64,000 nt of DNA from Guillardia theta CCMP2712 (Eukaryota > Protista > Cryptophyta): NCBI RefSeq assembly GCF_000315625.1, contig NW_005434569.1, forward strand, positions 169,816 through 233,815, written 5' to 3'. Positions 1 through 38,753 of the stretch are shown here, piece after piece. The notes beneath the pieces were generated by a model that worked only from the letters and a program-made list of their open reading frames with translations, was not told the origin of the DNA and made no database searches. The position numbers were made by a program, and so were the translations under genes. Each line of letters begins with the position of its first letter. Position 1 is the stretch's first letter.

Positions 1-3000
1 TTTGGATCTGCGATATAAAAAAGTCTTGTCTCGGTCACGTGATGTGTCACGTGACCGGTCAGGTGAGCCTGTCAGCCGGGTCACGGCCCCTGTCAGCCGG
101 CTGACATGTCACGGGCCTGCTGACACGGTCCGCTGACCGGTCACGGCCGCCCGGAGAGATCAGGCCCCCGGCCAATCTCCGGACACTTAGCCTCCTGGCG
201 GGCCTCCAGGGGGTCTGAGGCGGGGCTGAAGGCTGCAGTCGGTCTACTGACCGGCCCGGCCGGCAGGATCCGTCGAGAAGCAGGGGGGTCAAGGGAGGTT
301 TTCTTCCCCCTGGGAGAAATGTCCTATGGGTTTTTGGATCTGCGATATAAAAAAGTCTTGTCTCGGTCACGTGATGTGTCACGTGACCGGTCAGGTGAGC
401 CTGTCAGCCGGGTCACGGCCCCTGTCAGCCGGCTGACATGTCACGGGCCTGCTGACACGGTCCGCTGACCGGTCACGGCCGCCCGGAGAGATCAGGCCCC
501 CGGCCAATCTCCGGACACTTAGCCTCCTGGCGGGCCTCCAGGGGGTCTGAGGCGGGGCTGAAGGCTGCAGTCGGTCTACTGACCGGCCCGGCCGGCAGGA
601 TCCGTCGAGAAACAGGGGGGTCAAGGGAGGTTTTCTTCCCCCCGGGAGAAATGTCCGGTAGTATGGGTTTTTGGATCTGCGATATAAAAAAGTCTTGTCT
701 CGGTCACGTGATGTGTCACGTGACCGGTCAGGTGAGCCTGTCAGCCGGGTCACGGCCCCTGTCAGCCGGCTGACATGTCACGGGCCTGCTGACACGGTCC
801 GCTGACCGGTCACGGCCGCCCGGAGAGATCAGGCCCCCGGCCAATCTCCGGACACTTAGCCTCCTGGCGGGCCTCCAGGGGGTCTGAGGCGGGGCTGAAG
901 GCTGCAGTCGGTCTACTGACCGGCCCGGCCGGCAGGATCCGTCGAGAAACAGGGGGGTCAAGGGAGGTTTTCTTCCCCCCGGGAGAAATGTCCGGTAGTA
1001 TGGGTTTTTGGATCTGCGATATAAAAAAGTCTTGTCTCGGTCACGTGATGTGTCACGTGACCGGTCAGGTGAGCCTGTCAGCCGGGTCACGGCCCCTGTC
1101 AGCCGGCTGACATGTCACGGGCCTGCTGACACGGTCCGCTGACCGGTCACGGCCGCCCGGAGAGATCAGGCCCCCGGCCAATCTCCGGACACTTAGCCTC
1201 CTGGCGGGCCTCCAGGGGGTCTGAGGCGGGGCTGAAGGCTGCAGTCGGTCTACTGACCGGCCCGGCCGGCAGGATCCGTCGAGAAACAGGGGGGTCAAGG
1301 GAGGTTTTCTTCCCCCCGGGAGAAATGTCCGGTAGTATGGGTTTTTGGATCTGCGATATAAAAAGTCTTGTTCTCGGTCACGTGATGTGTCACGTGACCG
1401 GTCAGGTGAGCCTGTCAGCCGGGTCACGGCCCTGTCAGCCGGCTGACATGTCACGAGCCTGCTGACACGGTCCGCTGACCGGTCACGGCCGCCCGGAGAG
1501 ATCAGGCCCCGGCCAATCTCCGGACACTTAGCCTCCTGGCGGGCCTCCAGGGGGTCTGAGGCGGGGCTGAAGGCTGCAGTCGGTCTACTGACCGGCCCGG
1601 CCGGCAGGATCCGTCGAGAAACAGGGGGGTCAAGGGAGGTTTTCTTCCCCCTGGGAGAAATGTCCTATGGGTTTTTGGATCTGCGATATAAAAAAGTCTT
1701 GTCTCGGTCACGTGATGTGTCACGTGACCGGTCAGGTGAGCCTGTCAGCCGGGTCACGGCCCCTGTCAGCCGGCTGACATGTCACGGGCCTGCTGACACG
1801 GTCCGCTGACCGGTCACGGCCGCCCGGAGAGATCAGGCCCCCGGCCAATCTCCGGACACTTAGCCTCCTGGCGGGCCTCCAGGGGGGCTGAGGCGGGGCT
1901 GAAGGCTGCAGTCGGTCTACTGACGGGCCCGGCCGGCAGGATCCGTCGAGAAACAGGGGGGTCAAGGGAGGTTTTCTTCCCCCTGGGAGAAATGTCCTAT
2001 GGGTTTTTGGATCTGCGATATAAAAAAGTCTTGTCTCGGTCACGTGATGTGTCACGTGACCGGTCAGGTGAGCCTGTCAGCCGGGTCACGGCCCCTGTCA
2101 GCCGGCTGACATGTCACGGGCCTGCTGACACGGTCCGCTGACCGGTCACGGCCGCCCGGAGAGATCAGGCCCCCGGCCAATCTCCGGACACTTAGCCTCC
2201 TGGCGGGCCTCCAGGGGGTCTGAGGCGGGGCTGAAGGCTGCAGTCGGTCTACTGACGGGCCCGGCCGGCAGGATCCGTCGAGAAACAGGGGGGTCAAGGG
2301 AGGTTTTCTTCCCCCCGGGAGAAATGTCCGGTAGTATGGGTTTTTGGATCTGCGATATAAAAAAGTCTTGTCTCGGTCACGTGATGTGTCACGTGACCGG
2401 TCAGGTGAGCCTGTCAGCCGGGTCACGGCCCCTGTCAGCCGGCTGACATGTCACGGGCCTGCTGACACGGTCCGCTGACCGGTCACGGCCGCCCGGAGAG
2501 ATCAGGCCCCCGGCCAATCTCCGGACACTTAGCCTCCTGGCGGGCCTCCAGGGGGTCTGAGGCGGGGCTGAAGGCTGCAGTCGGTCTACTGACGGGCCCG
2601 GCCGGCAGGATCCGTCGAGAAACAGGGGGGTCAAGGGAGGTTTTCTTCCCCCCGGGAGAAATGTCCGGTAGTATGGGTTTTTGGATCTGCGATATAAAAA
2701 AGTCTTGTCTCGGTCACGTGATGTGTCACGTGACCGGTCAGGTGAGCCTGTCAGCCGGGTCACGGCCCCTGTCAGCCGGCTGACATGTCACGGGCCTGAT
2801 GACACGGTCCGCTGACCGGTCACGGCCGCCCGGAGAGATCAGGCCCCCGGCCAATCTCCGGACACTTAGCCTCCTGGCGGGCCTCCAGGGGGTCTGAGGC
2901 GGGGCTGAAGGCTGCAGTCGGTCTACTGACCGGCCCGGCCGGCAGGATCCGTCGAGAAACAGGGGGGTCAAGGGAGGTTTTCTTCCCCCCGGGAGAAATG

Positions 3001-3087
3001 TCCGGTAGTATGGGTTTTTGGATCTGCGATATAAAAAAGTCTTGTCTCGGTCACGTGATGTGTCACGTGACCGGTCAGGTGAGCCTG
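1..3087. repeat. Tandem array of a 332-337 bp GC-rich palindromic unit (~9.2 copies, probably continuing left of the window)
   Basis: TTTGGATCTGCGATATAAAAAAGTC recurs at about 1, 333, 670, 1007, 1344, 1674, 2006, 2343, 2680 and 3017. There are two variants (GTCCTATGGG and GTCCGGTAGTATGGG). The match ends abruptly after GGTGAGCCTG at 3087. Confidence 0.98.
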
Positions 3088-3304
3088 CCTCGACGTGCTC
3101 GCTGAGCTCCTCGTGATCTGGCTCTGCTCTCTCCACCATCTTGAGGATCGGCATTGCGGAGATCTCATCGAGCAGTGCTTCCGCCTCTGCCTCGAGATCC
3201 TCACCGAGCCCTGGCCCAAAGGTGGTGTTGGGATACACGATGCGGATGCCATCGTAGTCGAGGCTCAGGTTGGACGCGTGGTTTATTGCATCGGCAGGAT
3301 GCAT
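3088..3304 (-). CDS. Acidic hypothetical protein whose frame runs into the tandem array (truncated or fused)
   Basis: ATG at 3304 (MHPADAINH...) lies ~25 nt downstream of a minus-strand TATAAAAG. After ...EELSEHVEA the frame continues into repeat-derived sequence to 2738. Confidence 0.6.
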
Positions 3305-3375
3305 TTGTGAGCGTTGCAAAGACAAGGCTTTTATAGGTTAAGATTCTTTATTGCATGTTTAGGGCTCAGTGCAAT

Positions 3376-3690
3376 CTAGAAGACAACGTCCAAGGAGAGG
3401 TTGAGCAAGCGCCCGACGTAGTCGTGCGTCGAGCGCTTGAAGCGCGCCGCGTTGGTCTGCGTGTAGAGCTCGAGGTAGCGCAGCAGCCACATGTTCTCTG
3501 TCGCAATGTCAATGCACCTGCGACGGTCCTCACTGGACAGCCCGGTGACGCCCTCGTAGGTCGTCTTGATGTGACGCTCGAGGTTCTCAACAAACTGTGC
3601 AGTCTGTGAGGCAGTGGGGTGCCTGGCATCGATCAGCGTGCGGGCAAGCCTGCGGAGGTTGTTGTGAAAAAGCATGGGCTTAGAGTCCAT
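3376..3690 (-). CDS. Hypothetical protein (104 aa)
   Basis: ATG ORF with virus-like codon usage, TATATAAG ~40 nt upstream and AATAAA just downstream (~3347-3352). Confidence 0.7.
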   Translation of the reverse strand: MDSKPMLFHNNLRRLARTLIDARHPTASQTAQFVENLERHIKTTYEGVTGLSSEDRRRCIDIATENMWLLRYLELYTQTNAARFKRSTHDYVGRLLNLSLDVVF

Positions 3691-3814
3691 GGTCTGGTGG
3701 GTTGGGGGAGAGGGGAGGGGAGGGAGGGCTTATATAGACCCCAAGAGGGGGGGGGTCAGAGGGGGGATGGGGTCGATTACAAGTTTAATGCATCTTGTAT
3801 CAACGGTGTATCGC

Positions 3815-4129
3815 TCAGTGCTTCGTCTTCTTCTGCTTTCCTGGGGATGCGATTCGCATGAGATTCTGGTGGATCGCACGCACGTTTTGCTTATTCTCCC
3901 TGTCGGAGAGCGCGGAGATCAGATTCCTGCACTGCGAATGGCACGAATCGATGAGCTCCTTGGTGTTGGGTGCATGCTGTAGCTTGTCGCTCAACTTCTT
4001 TGCATTCCTCAGGTTCCTTGCCGTGATACCAGCGTTGATCAACTCGTCCTGATCACCATGCCTCGACACAATGTCGAGCTTCCTGGCGATATCTTCCAGT
4101 GTCTGCCTCATATCGATAGGTTCAGACAT
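3815..4129 (-). CDS. Hypothetical basic helical protein (104 aa)
   Basis: ATG ORF with TATTTAATA at ~4161-4169 on the minus strand and a basic C-terminus (KQKKTKH). Confidence 0.7.
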   Translation of the reverse strand: MSEPIDMRQTLEDIARKLDIVSRHGDQDELINAGITARNLRNAKKLSDKLQHAPNTKELIDSCHSQCRNLISALSDRENKQNVRAIHQNLMRIASPGKQKKTKH

Positions 4130-4247
4130 GATTCTGTAGTGCTTGTGTGTTGCTACGCGGTATTAAATACGATGCAGCGCCGAGTGATATAAGGGTGGAA
4201 GAGAACGGCTGGTGTGCGCGTTGGCTCTGACACTGTCTGTTTTGCAG

Positions 4248-6581
4248 ATTGGCACAACCAAGGGCACGGGCGGGGATTGCCTGATCTTGGAGGAGGCAGC
4301 CTACTGCGATTCGACCTTTTTCTATGAGACCGTCGCGCCAATCCTATCGATTGGCAGCACCTCCCTGCTCTGCATCTCCACGCTCACCTCCGAAATCAAT
4401 TTCTACACGAGGCTGATCAAGATGCGCGATCCCGACACTGGCCGCCCGCTCTTTGCCGTCAAGTGCATCGAGCTCGCTTGCCAGCAGTGCAAGGAAGACG
4501 GGAAGAGCCATGAGTGTGTGCACATGCTGCATCTCGTTCCGCAGTGGCAGAGCGGGGAGAGGCACAGGAGGCTGAAGGTGGTGATGCAAGACAGGCCCGA
4601 CCTCATCCAGTCGGAGCTGGCGGGGCTGGCGTTCGATTCTTTGCAGCAGGCGTTCAGGGTGAAGGACATCGAGGCCATGCTGTCGCAGCAGGCGCCCCCG
4701 TTTGTTAGCAACCAGAACATCTACCTGGTGGTGGACCCAGCGACGGGTGGCCCGCAGAGTGACTACGCGGTGGTGAGCATCGTGAGGCACAAGGGGTTGA
4801 TCACGGTAAGTGCAGGGATGTGTGCGTGTTTTATTCTTGCAAACACCAGTGGGATTTCCTTTGCGCGATTCCGCAGGGTTACCAAAGGATGTGTCTGAGG
4901 GTGTACTTTTCAAACACATATATCGTGAATCCGATACAGTGCTTCACAACGAAGGTGACAACCATCCAGGCAGCATCTTGGACCTTGCTCATTGTGCTCT
5001 TGCGCACGGGGATGTTGTTGGCCAGTGCGAGGAGCTTGATGAAATCACCGTACGTCGGATCCTGGACCATGTGCTCAGGCATGTACCTATGCTGTTGTTG
5101 CATGAGGTGCAGGGCATTGATGATGCACACTGGGACCTTGCCGTTTGACGGCATCGTGAAGGTGTTCAGCTCCGAGATAGTCTGGAAAACCTCAGGCTTC
5201 AGGTCAACTCCATGTCGATACATATCGAGATAGAGAAGGATTTCGTCGAGGTCCTTGCAGAGTTCCGAGCACTGGGCATCATCCTCGTGCTTCTTCAGTT
5301 CGAGCACCAACTCTTGCCATGTGCCCTGGTGTTTGATCATCGTTTCCCAGATCATGGTCTTCTCGGGGATGTTGAAGCTGGTGCAGGAAGCGACGATCAA
5401 CAGGACCACCTTAGTGTCGTGAATCAGTGGCTGAAGGTCAGCATTGCAGATACTCTCCCTGTTGTACTCCAGGTGGAGCACAACCTTGCAAATGTCACGT
5501 TCTGCATCGTCAATGGTGCTCGCAAGAAAGGACGTGAAGTCTTTCAGACCCGATATCATGGTTAACTGAATCGGGTCTGCAAGTTTAAATACCAGGCGTT
5601 GCCATGCTCATGAGCATTGATACATCTCCTGGATCTCCTGCTCGAAGGTGATGGTGGTCTTGAGTTCGTCTCGGAGGAAGTTTGGGATCACAGTGCTGTC
5701 GATCGCCTTGAAAAACACGGGGGCCTTGTATCCGCAGAGGGGTTGGAGGGTGACGTCGGCTTCCTCGATGACGTAGGGCTTTGTGAATGTCTCCTTGAGA
5801 CCCATGTCAACGTTGAGCAGCAAGATCAGCACACACCGCGCCATGTGCTCGTTCCTGCTGGCGATGTCGAGCAATTTGGAGGGGAGCGGGTCTTTCAATA
5901 TGTTGGCAAGCCTCTGTGCAGATTCCCGGCAGAGCTTCATTGTTGTCTTCATGTCGTTGTTGTAGAGGATATGGAAGAGGATGTCTCTCTGTGGCACTGA
6001 CATTCTTGCCGTTGCAGATTGTCGGGATGGACGTCCTCTCCGGATGCAAGGGTGAACGCTTCCTTTTGATGCATTTTTTAACCTCTTGCACTGCAGAGCC
6101 AGACAAGCAGTTCGATCTCCTCGCCGAGCACATGCAGCGCCTGAGGGATTGCAACACGGCCTTTGTGGTATCCGAGATCATTGTCATGGTGGAGCGGAAC
6201 CTTGGGTTCGAGGCGGAGTATCACCAGCGCCATTTCAACGGCATGAAGAATGTGAGATTCAGGGTTGACCACAAGGCCCAGCGCTACGGCGTCCTCACCA
6301 CGCATGAGATCAAGCATGCGATGTGCACGATGCTGAACTCACTGCTGAGGGAGGGGAGGGTGCATCTCTGGGAGAATTTCGTGAGCCGCGATCCGAGGGG
6401 CATGAAGCGTCGGCTTCGCGAGCAGCTGGAGATCTACTCCTACCAGTTCAAGAGCGCGGCCAGTGTGTTCAACAAGGATCAGATGGCGCTCAGTGGAAAG
6501 GTGGGAGGCATGAAGGATGACGTCTGCATCGCACTGCAGCTTGCGTGCTATTACAGCTCGAACCCAGAGTTTTACGCGTAG
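4248..6581 (+). CDS. DNA-packaging terminase large subunit, C-terminal ATPase part plus RNase H-like nuclease; exons 4248-4805, 6018-6051, 6097-6581; 5' exon(s) absent
   Basis: KGTGGDCLILEEAAY (Walker B), LLCIST (coupling motif), CxxC...CxH Zn site, IYLVVDPATGG (nuclease Asp), IVMVERN, and ALSGKVGGMKDDVCIAL like the herpes UL15 C-terminus. Donor ACG|GTAAGT at 4806 and acceptor CTGAC...TTGCAG|ATT at 6017 join in frame. Confidence 0.9.
4879..5559 (-). CDS. Intron-nested hypothetical protein (226 aa)
   Basis: Clean ATG ORF with strong codon bias, TATTTAAA at ~5584-5591 and AATAAA at 4830-4835 (minus strand). Confidence 0.85.
   Translation of the reverse strand: MISGLKDFTSFLASTIDDAERDICKVVLHLEYNRESICNADLQPLIHDTKVVLLIVASCTSFNIPEKTMIWETMIKHQGTWQELVLELKKHEDDAQCSELCKDLDEILLYLDMYRHGVDLKPEVFQTISELNTFTMPSNGKVPVCIINALHLMQQQHRYMPEHMVQDPTYGDFIKLLALANNIPVRKSTMSKVQDAAWMVVTFVVKHCIGFTIYVFEKYTLRHILW
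5608..6003 (-). CDS. Intron-nested hypothetical protein (131 aa)
   Basis: ATG ORF with virus-like codon usage; its first codons overlap the intron branch point. Confidence 0.75.
   Translation of the reverse strand: MSVPQRDILFHILYNNDMKTTMKLCRESAQRLANILKDPLPSKLLDIASRNEHMARCVLILLLNVDMGLKETFTKPYVIEEADVTLQPLCGYKAPVFFKAIDSTVIPNFLRDELKTTITFEQEIQEMYQCS
6052..6096 (+). other. Probable 45-nt in-frame micro-intron in the terminase
   Basis: G|GTGAAC...T-rich...TTTAAC...CTGCAG. The stretch is T-rich inside a GC-rich exon, and removing it gives CKEPDKQF. Confidence 0.6.
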
Positions 6582-6587
6582 ATTTAT

Positions 6588-7552
6588 TCAATTCGAGTTC
6601 AATATACTCCATGCCTTGAAGAATTCCATGCATTGGTGTGCGTCGAAGTGCTCCATGATCGCCTCCAGTATGAATGGTCTCAATATGTCCTGGTTGTTGT
6701 TGCAATTCTCGTAGATGCATTGCAGGAACCCGCCGATGGCATCCCGCAGGTGTATATCGTTCTGGATGCATGCCTTGCAGATCTTGACAAACACCATCGT
6801 CAGTGCGTAGAAGTCCGTGGCCTCCAGGTCGTGGTAGGTGAAGGCATTGGCCCTGCACACGATGGGATAATCCATGGTGTTCTTGGTCATGCAGGATATC
6901 TTGAGCTTGATGGATTCGGGGCAAAGGGTCGGATTGGGCAGGTGGGATATTGTCCCGTCCTTGTTGTAAGCCTTGGGGTGGAGCTTGGGGATGAAAGCAT
7001 TCCCCCAGTCGATGAGATAAGCAGAGCCATCCTCGTTGATGACGATGTTGTGGTTTCGGATGTCGTGTGATAGACCGAGAGGGAGTGCAGGCGGGCCAGT
7101 TGGCGGCAGATCCTCTGGAAGCTCTCTACTAGCTTCTCCCGCATGTGAGGTTGATAGAATGAGATGAAACGCGGTGTCGGCACCCCGAGGTAGGGGAGGA
7201 TGGCGTACATGATTCGGTTGTATTCCTTCTTTAACATCCCAAATCCCGACCAGGTGCCAATGTGGTCCCTCTCTCTGTAGTCAGAGAGTTGATCGAGAAG
7301 GTATCGGTTGATCTGGGTCTCTTCCATGAAGAGCGTTGGGCTTGAAAAGAGCTTGATCACCAAGGCATGCCCCTCCTGCTTGGCAAGGAAGCACTTCCCG
7401 GAGACCCCCTCCCCGAGGTAGAAGAAGCGGATGCCTCTGAGATCCCGCATCTGCCTGCTGTGGCGGACAACCTCGAGCAGTATGGTGTATGTCTTCTTGG
7501 TGTTGTGGAGCTCCGTGTGGCGTATGCGTGGGAGGGGGATGGATTCGGACAT
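6588..7552 (-). pseudogene. Ser/Thr protein kinase with a 1-nt frameshift at ~7066 (pseudogene or sequence error)
   Basis: LGEGVSGKC P-loop and VIK lysine. Adding one base after TAT CAC gives YHxDIRNHNIVINEDGSAYLIDWGNA and joins the 6588-6890 ORF (~321 aa total). Confidence 0.85.
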
Positions 7553-7583: not shown

Positions 7584-10500
7584 TTAAAGGCCCCTCCCCT
7601 GTGGTTGACTAATTCTAATATCTAGTTTTAATCTATGTGTCATTATGACTGTCGCGATGATGAGCTTCAGTACCTCCCTCAGGAGGAATACCGGGAAGCT
7701 CACGAGGAGGCCTATGACGTAGAGGAGGAAGAATATGATGATGTAGATTGGTATGACCCGCCAGATATTCAGCGTGCCGCAAACCAATTGTGCGTTGATC
7801 ATGTCTTCTTGGTATGCATCGATGATGGCTGCCTTGACAGATATGTGCCGGTTGAGCGAGGTGAACTGAACCGCGGCCGGGAATCCAGCGATGGACGCCC
7901 CCAGAGACCTGCAGAGGTCGGTAGAGATGAAGCAAGTCCACCATGCGATCTCGGATTCCCACGTGTTGAATTCAAACGGCGCGTCGCTGCAAGGGATGAT
8001 GCATGCCTCCCTATTGACCACCGCCGGGTCGTTGAGGCACCCCGGTGAGGTCTGCAGGCTGTCGGGGAAGCGGAAGGACGAGGGGAAGAACACGTTGGCA
8101 ATATCCACAAAGTCCTGAATGAAGCACGTCGGGATCATCGGTGCGCAGAAGGGGGAGACACCAAAGGCGTAGTAGCTGGTGATGACTGGGTACGTGCCCC
8201 AGAGGAATGTGCTCACGTAGGGGATCTGGAAGGCAGTGATCACCGCAGTGGTCCCCGCGAGCAGTATCCCTACGACGATGCCGGAGACCAGCAGTGTGTA
8301 CTTGTGCTTGGAGCACAGCATCACGGCCGACCGGTCGCACCGGAGGAAGTCTTGCAGGAATCCAGGCGATGCCATGAGCGCATTGTAGAAGAACTGCCGA
8401 TTGAACGGCGTGTGCTCCAGCGCGGATACGACAGTGAAGACCATCGTCGAGATCCAATCCCCGTTGACGGGCCTCTGCAGCGGTGGCACAGTCTTGGTCT
8501 GCGGCAGGCCGCTTAGGGGCCAGCTGCCTGAAACCACCTTGCGGGGGCTGGCGGCGAGGAGGGAGCCCTGGGTGTAGAAGAGTGTGACGTTGCCAAAGGC
8601 GTTCCTCGTCAGCGTCAGTGTGTTGGACAGCAGCGCACACGACCCGAGGGTCTGCGGGATGTCGTAATTCACGGGCCATGCAAAGGGGCTGTCCACCCAG
8701 GCGTTGCTGGTCGCCGCCCCAACTGGCTCGACGATGCCGTCATTCAGGGAGGTGGAGGCGGTGAACCGCTTCACCTCGCTCCTCTGTGTCTGCCATGAGG
8801 TCTGCAGCAGGTGCCTGCCGATGGATGCGTTGGTGATGTTCTCGAGGAGGTGCATGGCAAAGGGCCCCTCGGCAGCGATGCTGAGGATGTGCTTCATCGC
8901 CAGCTGGTTCTGGATCGCCAGCGGGCCGTCTACCCCCGAGCGGTTGAAGTGGGAGGAGAGGCCGTGGAGGATGTTGAGGAGGAGGAGCGTCGTCTCGCTG
9001 ATGTTGTCACCGTGGATGTACATCCCGCCGTCGATATCTATGCGATAATGAAGGCTGTTGTTCCTCTTCGTGCCGTGGATTGCGATCTCGTAGTAGAGGT
9101 CGTGGAACACCCTCGTCCACACGTGGTAATAGCGGTGCAAGCGCTGGAAGATGCTGGTCTGCATGCCAAGCTCCAGCACGAGGGTGGGATTGTACAGCAG
9201 CAGCAGGAGGGCGGTGGGATCATTCCCTATGGTCTCCATCAGGTCGGTGAGGCTCACGAACATGTTGGGAGGGATGCGATCCTCGATGCCGTGCCGCCTT
9301 GCAACATCGTAGGTTGCAGCGAACCTGGTGATGCAAGAGACAAACACGCGGGTGGTGCGGTTGGAGAGGAGGTATTCGTCGTAGGCGTCCATGCAGGTGG
9401 CGTCGTGGCTGTAGAACTCTGGGGAGTCCAAACCGAGGAGGCGGCGGCCGTAAGGGCCCGAGGCGCCGGCGCCAGACATGCCGCTGATGCCAATGGAGAC
9501 GAGCATCGGTGCAAAGCTGAAGAACGAGCTGAACACGCTGTAGCAATACACCTGGTCGTAGTTGCTGTTGTAGCAAGGTGTGGCGAGGAGGTTGTTGTAG
9601 CTTATCGTGTAGGTTGCGCTGGAGGATGCCGAGAACCCACCCATGGAGGTGGTCACCTGCGCAAGGCAGAGGCCGGAGAGCTTCGGTGCCACCGCCTTGG
9701 TGACATCGCTGTTGGAGCAGCCCTGTGGGTCCACCCGCGTGAGGAAGCAAGAGCAAGAGCCGTAGGTCTTCCCGGGTTGCAGGATGCACATCGGCTGCGT
9801 TGTGCACTGTGCACACGGGATGTTTCCAAAGGTCGGCTGTATGTCGCTGTTCATGAAGACGCAGGTGGCATCGATCTGGTTGACACACTGCTCGTGCGTC
9901 ATGCACGGCGTCTCGTAGGTCTGCATCACGTTGCACATGCACTGTTTCCGTATGGGATCGCACCCGTACCTTGCCACCGTGCTGGTGGATCCGCCGTAGG
10001 GGCATGCGTCGCACACCATCGTGTCCGACCCGCTCGAGGCCGTGGCGCGAAGGCAGGTGTCCGAGGCGGAGCAGGAGAGGCGGGCCCCGTCGCTCACGCT
10101 GGTGATGTAGCTGGCCCAGCAGCGGGTGGGCGTCGGCAGGGTTCCATCTTCCGCCTGCGGTGGGAAGGCATTCCCAATGTCACATTTGAGGACATTCCTG
10201 GCATTGCAATCGATGGACTTGAGCTTGTTCCCGACATCCAGGTATATCTGGTAGACGATCCAGGTGAAGGGCTTGATCCCGATGATGCTGATGTCATGGA
10301 TTGTCTTGAGGGCATTCCCGATGCCCGTACACACGTCACCTACAAAGTGCAGGATGGGGCAGATGACAGGGAAGAAAAAATTGTTCAGGAACCAGTTGAT
10401 GATGGTGCAGATGATCTTGATGATCTTCATGAGCTGATCCCCAAAGGGAGCGGAGCGTATGAGCTCAAACACCATGTTCCCGATCTGCTCAAACAGCACC

Positions 10501-13500
10501 CTTGCCTCGTTGATGAACATGTTGAACCAATGCATCACCTGTGGCATGACCTGATCGGAGTTGATGCCTAGCAGCAGCTGCATGAAGTTGAACCCCATCA
10601 TCCCTGCGTAGAAGACGAGCTTGACAATGGTCTGAACGATCTGCCTCAGATCCCCAAACAGCTTGTAGATAGGGACAAGAAACTCTGCCGCGCACTGCTT
10701 CTTCATGTTGTTGTTCTGTGCGATCACCGCCTGAATCTCCTGTGTGGTGTAGACCGAGGAGCACGCCTCGCTGCTCACCGACTGGTAGAAGTCCAGCACC
10801 GTCTGCGTCACAAAGGCCTGGTTGGATATGCTGTAGGCCGACGGGTTGTAGAGGAAGCGTGATTCAACGCACACCCCCGCGGCCTTGCAGTTGGCAGCCT
10901 GTATCCTCTGCAGGAGGCTTGCGACGTGCGTTGAGAGGTTGTTCATCGTAGAGTCGAGCGTCCATATGCGTATGGGGATCATCGTGCTGGTGGTTGGGGC
11001 CGCGGACATGGCATCGCGGCACGCACCGAAGCGCTGCTTAGGGTCAAGCCAGGTCTCTTTCGGGATGGATCCGTAGCACTTCCTGTTGGAGTAGGGTTTG
11101 GAGTACCGGTCGCTGTCGGAGCAGAAGACCCATTCCCTGTCCCAGAACTTGCTGTCATTCACGGGATTGGGCGGCGCCGGGGTGGAGATGGAGGCGCTGC
11201 TTTGTATCTGGAAGAGCGAGGTGAAATCCTGCAGGTAGGCCTGCAGGAAGCTGTCGACGGTCCACTTGCTCGGGTCGATGGCGTTGTCGAGCAACGGGCA
11301 ATCGATGGAATTGCCACAGATCTGCCTTCGGAGGTCCTGTGCCATCGTGCGGGAGAGGGAGAGCCTCACGGGAACCCCAAAGCTTGTGAATTGTCTCATG
11401 CTGCTGGATACGGGGTTCCTGGCGTTGTCGGTTCTGTCGACGTAGGATCTGAGCTGTGGCGAGGGCTGGCACTCCTGGAATGTCCTCCTATGGTTGGCCT
11501 GGAATTGCGTGACAAAGTCCGTTGGGGATGGAACGTCGAGGGCGTGCAAGGAAGTGCTCGTCACTGGCTTCCCCGCGATGAGGGCTGTGGTGCTGCACTC
11601 GAGGTGTGAGAAGTTGTACCGGTGGCATCTCCCCCCGATGGGAACGGTGCTTGGGACGCGGACGAGGCGCCCTGTGTGGCATTCCCCTCCCGCGTCCAGG
11701 GTGGTGATGCCGGCATCCGCCGTGATGCTCACAGGGAGATACCTGAGCTGGAACTCCCTGAGACGATCGTGGACGGGGCAGTCTGTGTTCTGTGCCGCAC
11801 TCCCTAGGTCGGTGCCGTCGCGGAGGACGCCCTTGGTGTTGGGCCAGTCAAGGCTCCGCTTGCATCCCTGCGTTCCCGCGTAGCTCTGCTTGGTCTTCCA
11901 TTGGTTCCCCGTGAGGAGATCGACCGTCTGGTACAGCCCACAGCTGCTCGCCGTGTCGGTGGTGAGGAAGGAGCAGTCCGACTTCGAGGAGCAGCTGCAG
12001 ATCTCGCTCACGAAGAATGGGTCTGCGAGGTCTGGGATCGTGGTTCCAAAGGGCTGCATGGGGTTGGACATCCCGTTCCCTACCGTGCCGCCCATCTGGT
12101 TGGTCTCCGAGAACATCGTCGCTGCACGGGGCCCGTAGGGTGCCTTGGGGCGGAAGGACTGCGACGATCCTCCCCAGTAGTGCATCTCCCTCACAGGGCA
12201 GTCCCAGGATACCGCCCCGTTCTGCGATGCGCTGCCAAGCTCGGCCGCATTCAGATCGTAATCCGAGCGGGAATCGATGGCGTAGGTCTTAAGCCAATCG
12301 AGGTTGTTGGATGCGCATGGGTCGATCCCTGGGGTGCTCGGGGAGGTATCCGCATTGGTTGCATAGGCAAGGGGCAGGCATTTCGGCAGCAGGTTGTGCG
12401 TGACGCCGTCGGGCAGCGGGGCGAGGTCGGCGACGAGGAGCGACCCCCCGATGTCCATCTGCGACTGCTTCAGGATGCCAAACTGTGGCGAGCGGGCCTG
12501 GAATGCAGGGTTTGGATTCGAGCCAAAGATGCCCGAGTAAGGCATGGAGGTGGCCGGGCGTGTATAGAGATCCTCCATCGTCGTCCCGGACCCGCCGCCA
12601 AAGCTTCCCTGCTCGTGCAGGCAGGTTGTGTTGACGCGAATCCCGCGGTTGCAGAGATTGTTGCCTGCAGTGCTCAGGATGTCGATGCGGGATGGGGGCT
12701 GGTTGTTCTTTGTGATGCACTGGGCATAGACCAGGGAGTTGTACTCCGTGCAGGCGGAGATCCCGGTCTTGCAACCCCCGCTGATGACGGTGCTGAACTC
12801 ATTGGGGAGCACCACCGTGTCGCAGGCATCCCTGATGTTGAAGCCCCCGCCCAGCCATGGGTTGAGCGAGAGCACGTAGCCGTCGAAGGTCCTGTAGCAA
12901 ACGGCCTCGGATTGCAGCGTCTCCTCGCAGCGCATATCGCTCAGCACCCAATCGAGGTATTGATCTCGCGACGGCCTCGCAGCCTTGGCCCAGTGCAGGC
13001 TGTGCATCGAGGTCACCTGTGCAGCCGTGAGCTTGGTTAGCACGGATTGCTCGAGGTCAGCGACGCTTGCAGACTTCCGCTTGTACTGCGCAAGGCACGA
13101 CTTGAGGCTCTCCCTGTGTGACGCCGGTGTGCATTCGGTGGTCTTGACAATCTGGTTGATGCACTTGTCGAGGGGTTGGAGACGCATGGTCTCGGCCTGT
13201 GCCCTGTAGCTGTTCAGCTCGTAGAGGTTCAGCGTTGTGTCGGGATACTTGCTGTTGGTGTCCATGAATGAAAGGCTGAGGAAATCCGGCGTTATCCACA
13301 GCTGGTTGTACAGGTCGGAAGGGAGAAGGCCGTTGCCAGACGTGATCTGCCTTGACACAAGAAAGTGCATGAGCCGGAATGCATCCTTCTGTGTATACCC
13401 ATTGGCCGCTGAGCTCTGCCCTGTGAGGCCGATGTAGTTCCTGTCAGAGCTTGTGAAGCCAAGAACGGATTCGTCGATCCTCCTGTAGCGGTACAGGTGT

Positions 13501-16500
13501 TTTCCGATATACTTGAGCAACGGCACGCGGGCGCAGTCACTCTTGCAGATCCAGAGGTTGTTCATGATCTCTGCCAATACGCTCTGATTCACCGACCTCA
13601 GCGGGCACTTGGAGAGCGCGTCCGTCGCGCTGCTGGCACAGAAGATCTCCGTTGCATTCTGCAGATGCAGGGCAATGGCATGCACGAGGCTGTTGTCGCG
13701 GGCAACATTGCAGACCTTGCCAGGGCAGGGGCTCACCGATCCCAGGCTCGTAGAGCAAGAATCGGTGCTGCAGCGTGTAGAGACCCCAGTGGGTCTTGCC
13801 CCGTACCGGCTCCAGATGGCCTCGTTGGAGAGGACGGCGAAGTTGGGCTGCTGCCCCGTCCCGGCATACCATGAGTTCAGCGTGCTCTGCACCGAACCCA
13901 CCGTCTCCGCATCCCAGCCCGTCCATGACAGCAGGTGGCTCTTGTTCACCCCCGTGACATTGAAGCAGTCGACCCAGGCAGGGTACCATCTCGTGCTCGT
14001 CCTGGGGTATTCCACAGAGTAGAACTCGTCCGCATTGGGATCGCGGCTCCCCGCCGTCCCGTCGCGATAGAACACGTAGATGTCAACACCCCTGACGGAC
14101 TGCACAAGGTCGACGGGGGTAGAGAACCCGCCGAGCGACTGGCTGTCTCGCAGGCAGGTGGAGTCGGTGCGCAAGCAGATGTCGCCAGCTGGGTTGGTGA
14201 CGTCGAGATCAATGGTTGTGAACTGCACCGAGGCCAGCGATGGGTTGACGGCGCTTTGTATGTCCCGCACAAAGAGGAACTGCTTGCAATGCGTCTGCAT
14301 TGAGATGTTATTCCCACCATTCACCCCTGGGGCGTTGAGGTACGTGTTGGTGCACCTGTCATCCTGCGAAGCATGAAGCAAATCGCAGGACTGCCCCGTG
14401 CGTTGGTCGTAGGATGGGGTTGGATTGCAGACATTGATGGAACGGCAGTTCTGCGCAGAGTCACACAGTCGCACCTCGGGATCCTGATCCAGGTTCTTGG
14501 TGATCCCAGGCTCGTAACCGGGGAAGTTGCTGTACAGGCATGCGGTGGTTTGCAGCGTGTTGTCCCGTATGAGGCTCTGATACCTTCGGAACAGTGCACC
14601 GTTGTATTGCACGTCTCCGTAGGTAAAATCCTCCAGCGGCTCATCTTCACGCAGCACGGAGGACAGGATCGAGTCGAGCTCCGAGTCTAGGAATCGCCGG
14701 AAGATATTCGGGAAGTTGTACTGCAGGATGCCGCTGGTGGCATCGAAGTACTGCTTGTCTCGCGAGAGGAAGTCTGTCGCGAAATCCGCCCTCTGGAATG
14801 CCAGGTTTGCCCTCGCCGTGCGGTTCACCCCCGAGTTGGCAGCGGCGTATCCCAGGTTGATGTCACCGCTGAGGATGAAGTGCAGGACCTGGGTGAGCAG
14901 CGCTGGGATTCCGTCGTCGGCTGGGAGCCCGCCGTCGTCCTGATAGACAGGGTCCGTGTTGGTGATCTTGGTGCTGTCCGAGATGACATCGCTCGAGGTG
15001 GTGTATTGGTTGTACGCCCAATCGTGGTTGTAACGGCTCTGGAGCTTGCGCAGCTGCACGTAAGTCAGGTTGATGTACTCAGGGTGCGAGGAATAGCCCA
15101 TCGCTGCCGTGACGTCGGCCTGCGCCTGCAGCAGCTTCGAGTACAGCGTGTCGTAGATGCTGAGGGCAATCTGGTCTTGGTTCACCACCGCCCGCCTCGA
15201 TGATTGCAGGTACAGCGCATTGGCCATCATCAGGAATTGCCTCACCGTCGACGGTTGATAGCCCGCGGTGTGTGAGTTCTTCCAGCCCGCACAGGGCACT
15301 TGATCGATGTTGCCGGCGATCATGCCGTCGATGTTCACGTCGCCGTCTAGAATGACGCACTGCGCCCACCACTTCATCGGGATCTCCATCTGTGAGGCGT
15401 CATCATAAAAGTACAGCGTCATGTAGGGGTAGAAGTAGGTGGGTACCCCGGGCTCGAACTCGTATGCATACCACTGTGTTGCCTCGTTGGTTGATTCGGA
15501 CTGCGCGTAGAGCGACATCGTATTGTACACATTCGCGATGCACACTGCCTGCTGCTGGTACTCCTCCCAGGTGTTGAAACCTCGCTTGAAACCACGGAGC
15601 AGGATATCATTCAACGCGCTTGCCACCTTGTTCCGGTCTGCCAATGCATAGCTGTATTTGTAGTAGCGGCAGAGGGTGCCTACTGCCTGCTCGTTGATGT
15701 ACGAAGGATTGAACTGACAGGAGGCCTTGAGGACGTCGTAGTCCTCGCATAGCATGCGCGCGATGGGGTTTGTCAATGGGTCCATACGGCATGGGACCCC
15801 ATCCGTCAGGGTTGTGGAGGAGGTTGACAGATCCACAAGATATCCGGCACTGCCGCAATACAGTGCGTCCTGCAGGGTGTAGGCATCCCTCCTCGTCCCA
15901 AGATTCTGCAGGTTGAGCCTGTTGATCAATCTGCCCTGCATCTTGTATCCCATGACATAGAAGTCCTGCAAGAAGCAGATCTGCAGTTCGGAGCACATGG
16001 AGAGGGAGAGGGATATGTTCCCAAAGGAGTCCTCACGGTTGTACCCCTGGTAAGGGGCCAGGAATCCCGTCCTCTTCCTCTCCAGGCTGCCGAGCTTGCA
16101 GAGCTGCAGGGACCACTTGTTGTCACCCGACGAGACCCAGGTCCTGGTAGTCTCCCCCTGTGCCTCCACCGGCAAGGGGATCCCAAGGCTGTCAACAGTA
16201 GTGGATGGATTGCCGACACAGGATGGGAACTGGAACTGGTAGTCCATATCGCAGGTGTGAGGCTCCATCTGCAGGATCCCGCGGTCGAACATGTCGAGCC
16301 GTATCTGCGCGTCGGTGAGGTATGGGTCTGTGCTGGGCCATTGGATGTCATCGGGGATATTTGCCAGCGTCGCTGTTGCAGCACCCGCAACCCCGGAGCG
16401 GGCGATCAGCTGCTCGTACTCGAACCAGGAGCGGAAGCCGCAGAGCCCGTGCCGGGAGAGGAAGTCCTGCGAGTTCTGCCAGGGTGAATGACCGAGGGTC

Positions 16501-19500
16501 TCCGTGCCGCATGCCTCCGAATTGACATGCATCTCCACGGGCCACGGGGCGTAGTTCCGCAGCATGACGTGCGGGTCTACACAGGTTCCCATGCCGGTGC
16601 AGACCCTTCCGGCGGCACCGCAATGATAATTCTGGTAGCATTCCATTGCCAATGCATTCTGCACTACGCACACCCCGTCCATCTCCTTCCCCTCCGCGTC
16701 CGACCATGCCCTCAGGCACTTGAAACCCTCCCCATAGAGTGAGACGCAGTCCCCGTCCGCGGTGCAGGTAAAGAAGTCGGTCTGGCCGCAGTCCCCGTTC
16801 CATCCCACCGCCGTGTGATTGGGGAGGCGGTAGCGCTGCAAGTCGGTGCTTGACTGGGGCCAGGATACCGCTGGGAGCATGCCTGGCCACCAGCGGTAGA
16901 GCATGCCCGACGATGGGAAGGATTGGTCCGACTGCCGGCCGTTGCTTGGGACATCGCTCCAGCTCGTTGCAGCCGTGGACTGCACAAAGGTGCCAGAGGG
17001 GGCGGTGTCTGCCTTGATGGGCTGTGTGGGATCCATCCTCTGCCCGCTGGTCCATCGGCTTTGGAGCCTCACGTTGTTGGTCTCCCACATGGGCATGCCG
17101 TAGGATGCCGAGCTGCAGGTGGAGGCGGCACCAAAGTAATTGCGAAGCAGCGTCTCGTTCTGCAGTCTCCGCGTGTCGAGCACGAGGTAGCGCTCGTCGG
17201 TGGCAGTGTCATAGTCGACGGACATCCAGGTGTCGAACGCCCTGTATGCCGTCTCCGTGTGCCGGCAGCCGGTGGTGACATGGTAACCCGTCGGGTGGAT
17301 CCAGTGGCTTGGCCAGTAGTCGAGGAGGGCATCGGCGTGCTCGTTGCTCCCCAGCGCCGTCCCTGCTAGGAGGCCCTCCCCGAGCCTTCCACCGAGGATC
17401 GACACCGTCTGCAGGTTGCGCCTGTCGTTGAGAGTCATCTGGAAGGTGTCGATATACTGCTGCTCGTAGGTGTTGATGCTGGATGCGAGGGTCTGCATGT
17501 CCGAAGCGGATAGACCTGTGTTCTGCAGCTCCTCGCTCGGAACCACTGTTGGCACGGTCATGGTGGACAGGCGCATGTCGTCGTCGTCGAGGGTGCGCGG
17601 ATCGATGGGGAGCTGGCAGGTGCCGGTGGTGTCGGACCAGGTGTATCCCTTGCATGCCACACCCTGCAGGCTTGCACAGAGGCACGGGTCGTGGAAGACC
17701 CCGTCGCAGTACACAAGGCAGTCCGAGGTTGCGTAGGCATTGGTGCAGCTCACAGAATGAGAATAGGGGCACTTGGAGCTGTCAAAGGTGGCGGAGAGGC
17801 CGCCAGATGGCACAATGTCGTAGATCCCATGCAGATTGCAGAGCGAGACAAGCCGCACCTGTGTCACGCATCGCAGCCTCCAGAGATCCACCGTTGTCCT
17901 CTGTGATCCTATCTCTGGGTTCGGTGTGGTGGATTGATAGATGGCGTCTACGTGGAGCAGGGCCTCCAGCCGTGCCAGCTCCAGCACGAACCTTGAGCAG
18001 AACGCCTCGGTGGACGAGGAGTGAACCGTCCTCGCCATGGGCATCAGATGATCGCGGAAGTGTGCATCCACCCTTGCCAGGTCCTTGACGTAGTCCTTGA
18101 ACCCATTGCTGGAGTGATCGCTGTTGGTGTCATCGATGCAATCCTCGATGGCAGCACTGGTGTCGGTGTCTGCATTGTACAGTTTGTGCTTTCGGGACGA
18201 GGGATTGAGGAACTCCGGGTAGTTCTGCTGTAGGTAATCCATGTTGGCAAGCCTCAACCCAGATGTGCCATGCGTGAGGAGGTCCGCCCAGTCAAAGTCG
18301 TAACCCCCCAAGAGGGAGCCCTGCACTCCCACGGCCCACTTGTCCACCTTGGTATCGCTCACAATTCCCCATACATCCGACAGCTGCATATCCGTGCAGA
18401 CCCAGGTGGGCATCCACACGGCTTCCATCGTACGGTAAACCGCCAACCACTGCGAGAAGGTGGAATAGGACCCTGCAGAGCAGATCGAGTAGAATTCCTG
18501 TATTGTTGCGGCGTCCAGAGCGGTCCCCTGCAAAGACGCCGTCTGGCAAACACCCGTGGGAACAGAGCAGCTTGTGCCGTCTGTGGATTTCCAACCGCAG
18601 TAGCAGCGGGTGGTGAAAGAGGACAGGTTCAGCCCGTAGGCCCCGTACGATGCCGTCTGCATACCCGTGAGATGAGGGGGCATCGTGTAGGATGTCCCGC
18701 TGGCATCCAGGGTGATGCGGTTGCCCGAGGCCGAGGGGAGGATGTCATAGGCGACGGGCCTTACCGTGGATTGGGAGTCCCTGCATCGCTGGCTCTTGGA
18801 TGGCATGTACCTCACATCCCCTCCCCTGAATCCGTGATAGAACGGCGACTCTGCCTTGGCCTTGGAGAGCAGCGTCTGCACCGTCTCCTCGATGCCGTCA
18901 ACGTATCCCGAGGAGGGGGTCGCCGTGGCATCGTGCTGGTAGGCGCTGTAGATGGTGTCAAGTGCAAGCCCGTCCAGCGTGCTGTTGAGGGGGAGGACGG
19001 CAAAGGTCTGCGAGAGAACGTTGGTGCACACCTGCCAGAGGTTCTGCGACGATTTCGGGTCGAGTATGTCCTCCGTGTCGTACCGGAGGATGGGTTTCGA
19101 GGTGTCAAACAGGGACTCATCCTTGGCCTGCGTCTTCTGGCTCTCCGTGAGGTTGGAGGAGTATTCATTGAACATTGTCACATTGGTGTAGATGTCGATG
19201 ATGTGCTGGTTGATCTTCTCGTAGATGCCCGAGAGCACATCCTCCGTCTCTAGGATGTCAAAGTTGATGCCCTGGATGTCCTTCGAAGTCCAGAGGTCCG
19301 GCTCGTTGGCCTTGCAGCAACGGAGGTTGTTCGTTCCGTCTCCGCACTGGCAGCCAAACAGGAGGGTGTTTGTGAGGACATCGCGGAATTGCCTCAGCTT
19401 CGCCCTCACCCCATTCTGCACGGCCTGTCGGAGCAGGTTGTTGCTGCTATCGGTGTTGAATCTCTTCAGCGTCTGGATGAAGCTGTGGATGATTGCCATC

Positions 19501-22500
19501 CTTCCCGGCCCGCCGCAGGAGAAGGGGGAGACCTGCGGGCAGCATGCGTCTTGGGCGGGGTCGCAGCCTGCCGATGGAATCTGGAATGTGCGATCCAGGG
19601 TGGAGGATCGGTAGTACTGAAGGACCTGAAGCGAGCGCGATCCGCCCGACGGCCAGAGCTCGGCTGCGGAGAACGGCCCTAGGAAGTAACAGTCGAAGAG
19701 CTGGTGGATGACATCCCCCTCCATTGAGAAGAAGTTGAGGTCCAGCTCTGTGTTGGACCAGCCCAGCACCTCGGGTGTGAATAGCGCCCTGGCCTCCGCC
19801 GCCACCGCATCGTACTCGTCCTGAACGGACTGGTACAGGGCCTGCGATCCGGGCACGTAGCTCACCGCATGCAGCGAGGCGATCGGGACGCGGTTGCTCG
19901 TCCTCCCCGACCAGATGTATTGCGGGAGCTGGCACTGTGAGGAGAGCGAGGTGCTCAGGCACTGGCTGAACTCGTGGGCAATCGCCGGATTGGGGTTCTG
20001 TGCCGGACCCGTGAAGACCTCGCAGCCATCGATGTCTGCATAGTCCGCATTGTCGGAGGAGAAGCTTGCGATGCTATACAGGAAGTAATTCACACGGCTT
20101 GTGTTCATCAGGGTGAGGTAGCCGAGGAGGCAGGCATCCGTTCCGGTTCCCACGCGCACGGACTCGGAGAAGCAATTCAGCACCGATTGCTGGATGAATG
20201 AGGGGTTGTACACATTGTCGATGATGAATCCAAGGTTTTGCAGGTCTGGATAGAGCTTGTAGTTGGAGATGTAGGCAGCCCCCGTGTCCCACACCTTGTT
20301 GGCAAAGTTGGATCGGCAGCGCGTGAGCACCGTCCCTGCATCGATCCCCTGACGCTCTAACAAGGGGAGCGTTGGGCGGTAGGTGTCGCAGCTCCCAAAC
20401 CGCGTGGTGGTAGCCATGCAACGCAGGTAGGCATCCATCCCCTTGCCCGTCGATGGGTTGTATCGGCATGCGTCGACCAGCTCCTGGAACGTGTACGGGT
20501 TGAATATGAGGTATGGCTTGCCGTCGGACCTCAGGATCTGCATCACACCGGTGCACCAGAAGGCATGCTCCCGGATGCCCTCACCCCTCCTCGCGCTGTT
20601 GATGTGGTGAGCATAGTCCCCGCACGCACACTTTGCAATGGTCGTCGTTGTGATATCCGGCAGCTTGCAGTGCTTCTCGTCGATGGTCTGCAGCACATCC
20701 ATGAACCCGTAGACCACGCCTCGCATGTAGCTCAGCGTCGCATCCGCGGAGTGGTACAGCGGTGAGAGGTTCAGCGTAAACCCCAGGTCGATGAAGCGGC
20801 TGGCCACCTGCGAGGCCGCGTTGTTTAGTGTGGAGGAGCTGCCGCCAAGGGCAAACGATTGGACGTCCTGCCCAAACACCTGAGTGAGGCAGACGCCTGT
20901 CATGTCTGCCGTGGCCGATTGTATGTCGGCATTGCTGATGACCATCTGCATGTTGCCAAACAGATCGGTGTTCAGGATCCCCAGCACGCTGTTGGTTGTG
21001 CATACCATGATCTTTTGTGTCACGGTTGCTATGTAGATAGGCAGTATCAGTATCTGTGAGAACATGTTTGTGATGCTAGCCATAGACAGGGTCGAGCGCG
21101 CATTGAAGCTGGGGTCAAAGGGGACGAGGGAGACAGCCTGTGAGCTCAGGATCTGCTGCGCCTTCATCGTGATGCCGTTGATCAGCGAGGCGATCATCCC
21201 CACGGTGGTGACAATGATGTCCTTGGCCTCGCACATGGTGGAGGCGAAGACCTCGTCGGGCCACTCGATCCTCACCACACCGTTGAGCTGTCCCGTGCTT
21301 GCATCGACAAGGAGCTTCATGTTCTGTGAGAAGATCATGTAGATACTCTGTAGGATCGTGAGGATCTGTCTTGTGACCATCTCTGCCGACGCCCCGATGG
21401 CGCAGAGTGGGCGTTGGTAGTTCACCGTCGTCCCTATGCAGTTGGCAACCGCGCACTGCGATGCCGCATAGCAGAGCCTCTGCACAGTGGGGTATCCCAT
21501 GCATCCCGTGCAATCGTCAACGCTGCAGTTCTTCTTGAGCGTTGTCAGGATCTGGTAGGCAGTGCTGAATGCCCTCTGCCCCGCCCACACACCGGAGGCG
21601 ATATTCAGGCGGATGTCGGAGAGCCACGTTGTTGTCACCCTCTCGTTTGCAATCGCGAAGATGGTCATGGACGATTGCTGCGAGGGCCCGTTGTATCCAG
21701 AGAGGGAGTTCTGCGACATCTTCGGTGTCTGGCGTATGATCTGGTTGTCCTGTGTGATGGATATCTTGGGGTTCGCCACGGTGGCCAATCCCAGGGTTGT
21801 CGCAAGGTTGGAGCTCATCCCCGTGGGGTGGCAGGTGAGGACGTCCACGTTCCGATCACAAACCCTGACGCTGTAGCCATCCGTAATGGGGAACAGCGCT
21901 ATCCCACTGCAGGAGGGGTCCAGGCATGTCACATAGGGGGTGTCGATGGTCGAGAAGATGTTCTGATTGTCAGAGCACTGCTGGATTGTGTAGGCAGAGG
22001 TCTTCAGTGCTACGAGCTGCGCGAACTTCTTCGTGTCAAGATAGATGTGAATGCAGACCCATGCCGTGGAAGGGTTGCCATTGATGGTCTGTATGGTGGT
22101 TCCTTCTATGAAGATATCCGCAATGTCGTCGCTTGGGAAGACCACCATATCCTCGATGGTGTAGAGATCGGTGAGGAGTATCGGGTTCTGTGACGCTGGA
22201 ATGGTCTGCACAAGGGTGTAGCTCTGCCTCTGGTTGCTGATGAGGAAGACGCTGCTCACCGTGGCGGCCACCAGGATGTTGCTCTCACCGATGGAGTCAA
22301 TGAGATTGATGCTGGCATAGCTCAACCGCATCACCGACGACGACCACTCCTTGCTCTCCGCCACCGAGTAATCGATCGCCTTGTTGGCAAAGGACCCGTC
22401 GGTGACGACCGCACTCGTCCGGATCCCCGTCTTGAGGTTCGACGGCAGGCAATACGCCTTGGACACCAGATTCAGCCCGGTGTCAATCCCGGCGATCGCG

Positions 22501-26789: not shown

Positions 26790-26925
26790 CCGGCGGCAAC
26801 GCGCCGGCAATCACCCCGCCCTTGTGCAAATAGTCCTAAATAGGGGAGGGTGGCCGTCTGATTGAAAATAAAGGGTCTGTCTTCTGCGGTGCGGGGGCAA
26901 AAGAGGGAACGCCCACGGCGCCCCA

Positions 26926-27839: not shown

Positions 27840-27904
27840 TTCCCCTTTTTATTGTGTACGAATGAATCCAGAGGTTAAAACCTAATTACCACGTCACTCC
27901 AACC

Positions 27905-38279: not shown

Positions 38280-38753
38280 ATGCTCATCAGCGGCATCGCC
38301 AACCCTGCCGGGGAGACCGAGGGATACAACGGGCTGCACCTCAAGGACGGGGAGATCGACGAGATCATCAGCGGCAGGCAGATGATCGGCATCCCCGTCA
38401 AGATCGAGCACAAGGGCGTCGGTGTCGGCACCGTGGTCTCGGCATTCAAGGATGAACAGGGCAGGCTGAACTGCATACTGGACATCACCGACGATGAGAT
38501 CGAGGGCGCGATCGCACAGCAGTGGGTGCGGGACAACACGGCCAGCGAGCTCTCGCTGGGTTACACCGTCGACATCAACCAGTCCGAGCCGCAGGGCAGG
38601 CTCTCCGCGGGGAGGAAGAAGGTGCTCGAGGTCAGCCTCGTCAGGAAGGGTGCGAGGAAGGGCTGCCACATCTACAGCCACCCAGGGAAGCACCCGCCTG
38701 GCGACCCCGGGTTGATCAAAGACTGGCGCGAGGCTTTCGGCCACCCCTTCTGA
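38280..38753 (+). CDS. Capsid maturation (prohead) protease, assemblin/HK97 type
   Basis: IPVKIEH..VGVGTV (catalytic His), ELSLGY (catalytic Ser) and EVSLVRKGARKGC (cf. herpes HVALC..GRR). Confidence 0.88.
   Translation: MLISGIANPAGETEGYNGLHLKDGEIDEIISGRQMIGIPVKIEHKGVGVGTVVSAFKDEQGRLNCILDITDDEIEGAIAQQWVRDNTASELSLGYTVDINQSEPQGRLSAGRKKVLEVSLVRKGARKGCHIYSHPGKHPPGDPGLIKDWREAFGHPF

Follow-up and report, generated by a model that had tools for sequence, protein, structure and literature searches.

The window, that is the whole 64-kb stretch of DNA analysed here, was found to carry close to its first letter what appears to be the rear half of a terminase gene, interrupted by two introns, the larger of which accommodates two genes on the opposite strand. 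The features are as follows.

1-3087, no strand: tandem array of a 337-bp unit (9.2 copies, 98% alike), with its junction as present in this copy
3088-4129, minus strand: three ORFs taken from the ORF list, two of 104 aa each and a third that the repeat array interrupts
4227-4247, plus strand: branch site and 3' splice site before the first exon seen, from the sequence and from the AG in relatives
4248-4805, plus strand: terminase exon of 186 codons, from homologues and the synonymous bias of variants
4806-6017, plus strand: phase-0 GT-AG intron of 1212 nt at a MING-1-type site, from splice signals and relatives
4830-4835, minus strand: AATAAA, likely poly(A) signal of the nested genes, from the sequence only
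4879-5559, minus strand: 226-aa passenger gene, lineage-restricted and fast-evolving, from one homologue
5585-5591, minus strand: TATTTAA, a TATA-like element 32 nt before the start of the 226-aa gene, from the sequence
5608-6003, minus strand: conserved 131-aa gene, likely MING-1, from a family found in all complete introns
6018-6051, plus strand: terminase micro-exon of 34 nt, from alignment with intronless homologues and from related loci
6052-6096, plus strand: phase-1 GT-AG intron of 45 nt, seen as a 15-aa insertion relative to intronless homologues
6097-6581, plus strand: last terminase exon, ending at TAG, from alignment with intronless homologues

This architecture is held with high confidence. 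The exon 4248-4805 contains near its start LILEE, which we take to be a Walker B-like motif, and near its end VVDP, presumably the first acidic motif of the nuclease; the exon 6097-6581 carries VERNLG and KDD, which we assume to be acidic motifs as well, and the acidic residues of the nuclease part of the terminase are presumably those of an RNase H-like domain. The first exon had 53 longer homologues with identities of up to 75%. In 15 of these the distance from the DP..GGP motif to ERNLG is 65-67 residues, and they were therefore regarded as devoid of the large intron. Five intronless homologues align continuously across 4805/6018, as expected for the joined protein proposed in the earlier note, and two of the four that were scanned matched the PHROG terminase large subunit (E 6e-5 and 9e-5), the remaining two giving weak matches to terminase families. 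A Pfam scan gave no match for either terminase block, searches of PDB sequences with terminase profiles matched no solved structure, and scans of IMG/VR with the terminase exons and two alignments found nothing. For folding, intronless homologues were used in place of the spliced terminase of the window. The sequences support a terminase of the herpesvirus/mirusvirus type, represented by its rear half; assignment to a mirusvirus is likely, given the architecture of the terminase and the accessible part of Medvedeva et al. (PMC12768974), and the label of protist virus would be one drawn from the literature.

The large intron has a GTAAGT donor at 4806, CTGAC at 5997-6001 and a CAG ending at 6017, and its flanks are in frame, which bears out the in-frame joining of two blocks described in the earlier note. 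The first of these blocks stands as it was, while the second consists of two exons, 6018-6051 and 6097-6581, split by the 45-nt intron, the length of which preserves the reading frame by chance. The large intron lies 23 codons past the aspartate of VVDP, within the nuclease-coding region.

A metagenome scan confirmed 539 stretches, the best 80 loci of which (L001 onward; 57 distinct exon translations, exon identity to the window 63-76%) were used for the counts. Comparison of intron positions among these relatives disclosed a complete GT-AG intron at the 4805/6018 boundary in 66 of the 80 loci, exact in 65 and one codon off in L055, so that one insertion site is common to divergent viruses. 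The intron is shorter in the relatives (355-764 nt, median 445.5). It is missing from five loci, L007, L062, L066, L067 and L070, of which L062 had been scored as truncated by the script and proved intronless on closer inspection; nine loci were too short to score. The small intron occupies the second site in 64 of the 67 loci that reach the last exon, measures 52-383 nt, and is in phase 1 in 59 cases and in phase 0 in five; in 42 of the 64 its length is not a multiple of three. Both intron sites are conserved among the relatives. Expansion of the second intron, to 228-383 nt in some loci, was noted in L072, L074, L078, L064 and L082; the last has additional long introns with ORFs and may hold more passengers. 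Terminase loci of this kind also occur inside two bacterial MAGs of GTDB (L081 and L082), likely misbinned viral contigs.

One of the five loci without the large intron, L007, is 99.8% identical to L001/L002, is without exactly their 408-nt intron and retains a 74-nt small intron, and its sequence departs from theirs exactly at the upstream acceptor; it looks like partly spliced RNA. Its first 37 nt differ from the end of the ATPase exon and include an in-frame stop. This piece (L007:1-37) meets the terminase sequence precisely at the upstream acceptor and may represent a further exon or a spliced leader of the host; it was not found in the other loci, nor was a 24-nt pattern from the 5' end of L007 found in IMG/VR. 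In an exon tree of 68 sequences, which omitted L007, L013, L038, L067, L070, L076, P0049 and near-duplicates, the intronless terminases formed two supported clades (12 and 5 rows) among the intron-bearing ones. As the root of the tree is only the midpoint, loss or gain of the large intron is not settled by it.

The two complete minus-strand ORFs first described within the intron, 226 aa at 4879-5559 and 131 aa at 5608-6003, differ sharply in their conservation. With a profile grown from the 131-aa protein, an antisense family member was detected in all 66 complete introns, as well as at the further locus L082, and all 74 family matches at related loci are antisense. A homologue at 92% identity was found, the contig of which equals in length that of the 226-aa homologue described below, and a library of 50% clusters, which has no taxonomy attached, gave 86 family matches at E<=0.001, mostly of 110-230 aa. 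The start codon of the 131-aa gene overlaps the branch site of the large intron, and its promoter must therefore be located over the downstream terminase exons. The nested genes do not each have a TATA box and an AATAAA, as had been stated earlier: the TATA-like element precedes the 226-aa gene and the AATAAA follows it, and the 131-aa gene has no TATA-like element of its own within the intron. That the small intron supplies a TATA box for the nested gene was also considered and found unsupported, with 6 cases in 44 as opposed to a mean of 7.1 after shuffling. Behind the family gene, AATAAA or ATTAAA was seen at no more than 9 of 71 loci.

Structure prediction, proposed in the earlier note for both nested proteins, was of use for the 131-aa protein, which gave a confident model (pLDDT 93.6, pTM 0.87) with a helical domain and a short hairpin, and not for the 226-aa protein (pLDDT 39). 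No clear match to the 131-aa model was obtained by Foldseek (best E 2.8 in PDB and 1.1 in BFVD), and the best hit of VIA-align (Z 5.1, rmsd 5.2, 88 aligned) was a designed protein. The family showed no consistent match in Pfam (56 members), PHROG or PDB, none of the 56 members had an HNH, GIY-YIG, VSR-like or PD-(D/E)XK domain in the Pfam scan, and the ESM Atlas gave no usable match for either nested protein. D66 is the single invariant residue. The charge is neutral to acidic (median net -1, 32 of 56 members negative), which makes the family a poor fit to an RNA-binding maturase. A complex predicted for a family member with both terminase halves, run without alignments, scored 0.00, a value of no weight either way.

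Family members were also found outside introns. In the intronless L062 the gene starts 4 nt beyond the terminase stop (E 1.5e-21), and in the intronless L066 it lies 1.1 kb beyond it (E 1.4e-20). These free-standing copies come from two viruses of one clade; L067 and L070, of the L066 lineage, end too early, and the second intronless clade consists of sequences without genomic context.

The 226-aa protein had one homologue, 46% identical over the full length, and in a related sequence with both nested genes the middle of the larger gene has diverged, so that the gene seems to be real and fast-changing. It had no tblastn match in the 80 loci, and it matched no Pfam or PHROG family, nucleases included, two sequences in all being available. 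The possibility that it is a paralogue of the 131-aa gene was ruled out (hhalign probability 0.7%). The AATAAA at 4835-4830 comes after the stop codon of this gene, no other AATAAA being noted in the intron, and the element TATTTAA found upstream of it occurs again 40 nt before the ORF starting at 4129. A different passenger, of 80 aa, with a TATA-like element at the same place, is present in the intron of L055. In L057 and L059, where gaps of 282 and 261 nt pointed to a possible passenger, the scan gave no complete ORF above 15 aa, and hence only L055 was counted as a second case.

The terminase reading frame does not begin at 4248, as had been assumed, for there is no start codon at this position and it is preceded by an acceptor, CTGAC...TTTTGCAG, the AG of which is found at the same position in 78 of the 80 loci. 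This junction is located 14 codons before the acidic pair of Walker B. No Walker A motif or ATPase exon was detected within the 64-kb window, and the 4247 acceptor likely receives an ATPase exon from outside it. In eight related loci such an exon lies on the same strand 1232-3511 nt upstream of the acceptor, contains STPRRFGKT (W for the second R in one of them) and ends with YPSK/GT; among the 16 loci with 10 kb of upstream sequence it was present in 5 and absent from 11. In L033, L035, L039, L040, L045, L047, L063 and L069, which form a subclade, the ATPase exon is in cis, and an intron of 1.2-3.5 kb with other ORFs occupies the herpes-like position.

In the window, the tandem array starts 1.16 kb upstream of the acceptor. 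Its unit contains a donor-like CAG/GTGAGC and a TATA-like run, and the array interrupts the ORF that starts at 3304. A contig of run X4 has other DNA in place of the array at the 3088 junction, and on account of both the array and this other DNA, joining in cis and in trans cannot be told apart for this copy. The three ORFs at 3088-4129 had no homologue in the 80 loci and would be nested in an intron if the ATPase exon were in cis.

The stretch was found in DNA or untyped runs from two studies with one species label, in small part also in a freshwater metagenome, and in a ChIP-seq run of a third study that covers 4100-6700 evenly at about 26-fold. The DNA runs with this species label date from 2011, 2021 and 2026 and contain several variants; since some variant sites are near 50% and others near 20%, several copies or alleles are indicated. 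Of 40 variants listed, the 36 situated within 4248-6581 were classed, three of them as non-coding. Synonymous sites made up 11 of 13 in the exon 4248-4805 and 6 of 7 in the exon 6097-6581, hence 17 of 20 over the terminase exons against 21-23% by chance; the 131-aa gene had 6 of 8 and the 226-aa gene only 2 of 5. Selection acts on the terminase exons and on the 131-aa frame. The element has probably integrated or persists, and this part of it shows no visible decay. None of the datasets listed as containing the stretch is of RNA, and a contig run labelled as RNA had nothing matching it. Reads joining 4805 to 6018, the direct sign of splicing named at the outset, were not among the five reads (90-95% identity) from an RNA run with the same species label, which need not have carried the virus. 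Even depth, several variants and recurrence in three studies suggest that a laboratory system for these introns may already exist.

The layout found here has in essence been published, and is not a new principle. In the accessible part of Medvedeva et al. (PMC12768974), MING-1 (Mirusvirus Intron Gene 1; MNGF-1 in the source tables) comprises 271 genes of unknown function, each of which sits in a terminase intron, at a single site within the nuclease region, and lacks a nuclease active site. The 60 of the 271 rows available to us include 57 antisense genes and three without a strand, with lengths of 129-271 aa, and two introns above 1.1 kb. No report on MING-1 besides PMC12768974 was among the literature matches listed. 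As in that description, a spliceosomal intron interrupts the nuclease-coding part of the terminase at a single conserved site, the intron carries an antisense gene whose length falls within about 130-270 aa and which lacks a nuclease signature as well as any match in Pfam, PHROGs or PDB, and the terminase is split before Walker B. The window intron thus fits MING-1 in site class, strand and size, by description and not by sequence, and the 131-aa gene is likely MING-1. Unlike the 60 available rows, which have one gene each, the window intron, at 1212 nt, holds a second gene of 226 aa, and unlike the published account, as far as it is accessible, family members occur here also as free-standing genes beside intronless terminases. 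The new elements are this 226-aa passenger, the free-standing gene of the 131-aa family in two intronless viruses, and the recurrence of the stretch in DNA runs with one species label from three studies.

The upstream junction has parallels as well. According to the accessible part of PMC12768974, the mirusvirus terminase is trans-spliced near Walker B in most lineages, and the window resembles the trans-spliced terminases of mirusviruses and alloherpesviruses, as far as described in the available parts of PMC12768974 and PMC13595911, in its bare acceptor just before Walker B and in that its 64 kb contain no ATPase half. It is set apart from them by the eight related loci with the ATPase exon in cis 1.2-3.5 kb upstream and by its own repeat junction 1.16 kb upstream.

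The reading we consider probable is that of a rear-half terminase gene with an intron that houses the 131-aa gene and a 226-aa passenger, that is spliced by the host and that is held in place by the conserved gene. The host spliceosome would likely remove the large intron and the 45-nt intron, leaving about 358 codons of terminase, which would be joined at 4248 to an ATPase exon outside the window, either by trans-splicing or across a long intron. Transcription of the nested genes would proceed along the opposite strand and yield ordinary mRNAs, with the AATAAA at 4835 marking their end. The 131-aa product may be a useful viral protein that does not act on its own intron; a late packaging or assembly accessory is a tentative guess from position, and a packaging role as such is put forward with little confidence. 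Since exact loss of the intron would delete the 131-aa gene, the conserved gene would anchor the intron, which could be expected to persist unless the gene had moved first, as in L062 and L066; for this anchoring the balance of the evidence is slightly favourable. An intron so maintained might tolerate the arrival of more genes, and the 226-aa gene, which has a TATA-like element of its own, may have settled behind the conserved one. The accessible part of PMC12768974 leaves open why one gene-carrying intron stays at one site across divergent mirusviruses, and the free-standing copies speak for a needed gene that holds the intron rather than for a maturase or homing role, with which the free copies, the strand and the charge are harder to reconcile. 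A broader proposition, that MING-1 is a core mirusvirus gene, perhaps for a packaging accessory, pinning an ancient terminase intron as a landing pad for new genes and that an intact MING-1 mirusvirus persists in a sequenced and cultured eukaryote, is speculative and more doubtful than the anchoring. If it were true, a persistent mirusvirus in a cultured eukaryote would offer the first laboratory handle on these introns, laboratory cultures being the key missing tool according to the accessible part of PMC12768974.

The alternative that survives best, though unlikely, is the one proposed by Medvedeva et al. in the accessible part of PMC12768974, namely that MING-1 is an RNA chaperone or a targeting factor; the 131-aa protein would then serve its own intron, and the intron would be semi-selfish. 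The fixed single site agrees with this proposal, as does the fact that in most loci the gene spans the intron from branch site to donor. Against it stand retention of the gene beside intronless terminases, its antisense orientation, owing to which the protein is not produced from the intron RNA, and a family that is not basic; moreover, the reviewers of that paper, in the portion of their reports available, saw no functional evidence for a chaperone.

The anchored intron also accounts better for the locus than a herpesvirus layout, in which the nested proteins would be UL16/UL17-like tegument or capsid-vertex proteins, a very improbable reading. UL16 and UL17 are much longer than both nested proteins. 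The likeness, as far as PMC3079670 is accessible, is that in both cases a GT-AG intron which contains antisense genes divides the terminase gene, UL16 and UL17 lying antisense in the intron of UL15. By our reading of exon II of duck enteritis virus in the accessible part of the same source, the UL15 junction and the 4247 acceptor, the latter situated just before Walker B, are about two codons apart; eight relatives have the ATPase exon in cis with other ORFs in between. The junction at the herpes position is therefore 4247, whereas the 1212-nt intron is a second intron, 186 codons downstream in the nuclease region and not between the ATPase exon and Walker B; the earlier statement that the two sites differ was right. 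Neither nested protein matched a herpes family in Pfam, and no UL16 or UL17 chain was among the fold matches listed for the 131-aa model. The same nested layout, as the earlier note had it, is not supported, and the comparison with UL16/UL17 would be an analogy only; the subclade with the ATPase exon in cis (L033 and others) appears to be the closer parallel to UL15/UL16/UL17. The related idea of an independent herpes-like gain in this virus is likewise not supported, since the intron and its 131-aa gene are common to most relatives and match MING-1.

Similarly improbable is that the intron is a shintron, a spliceosomal homing intron of mirusviruses, and that the 226-aa protein, as a diverged homing endonuclease, invaded the MING-1 intron. 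Like shintrons, the intron is of the GT-AG type, carries genes and interrupts a gene of virion morphogenesis; GIY-YIG (37) and HNH (21) cases in mirusvirus terminase introns are given in the part of the literature available, and the rarity and fast evolution of the 226-aa gene are those of a recent invader. Unlike in shintrons, neither nested protein, the 226-aa one with two sequences to go by, matched an HNH, GIY-YIG, VSR-like or PD-(D/E)XK nuclease in Pfam or PHROG, in agreement with the earlier note's remark on homing-endonuclease motifs, and homing into intron-less sites would be needless when most relatives already have the intron. That no splicing takes place, the blocks being fragments that each have a start of their own, or a decaying endogenous copy into which unrelated DNA has moved, is hardly credible. 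In its favour, the RNA runs examined gave no support for splicing, and the copy may be endogenous and adjoins a tandem array. Against it, conservation of the splice signals and phases extends over 57 distinct exon translations, retention of the small intron would disrupt the reading frame in 42 of 64 cases, the copies show a synonymous bias and L007 is without exactly the 408-nt intron.

Elsewhere in the window, a kinase-like gene at 6588-7552 on the minus strand is made up of two overlapping frames with weak APH/Pkinase matches, and has a frameshift or an unrecognised intron near 7060-7100. It is followed at 7584-26789, also on the minus strand, by an ORF of 6401 aa that has numerous cysteines and, close to either end, hydrophobic segments. 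Further on there are two GT8 glycosyltransferase-like genes (26925-28852), a PD-(D/E)XK nuclease (30618-31523), a weak Herpes_ORF28 match (38280-38753), a DnaJ domain (47651-48160) and a GT25-like gene (54804-55661). The part from 46000 to 64000 has a GC content of 40-51% and many short tandem repeats, compared with 54-64% GC in the first 30 kb.
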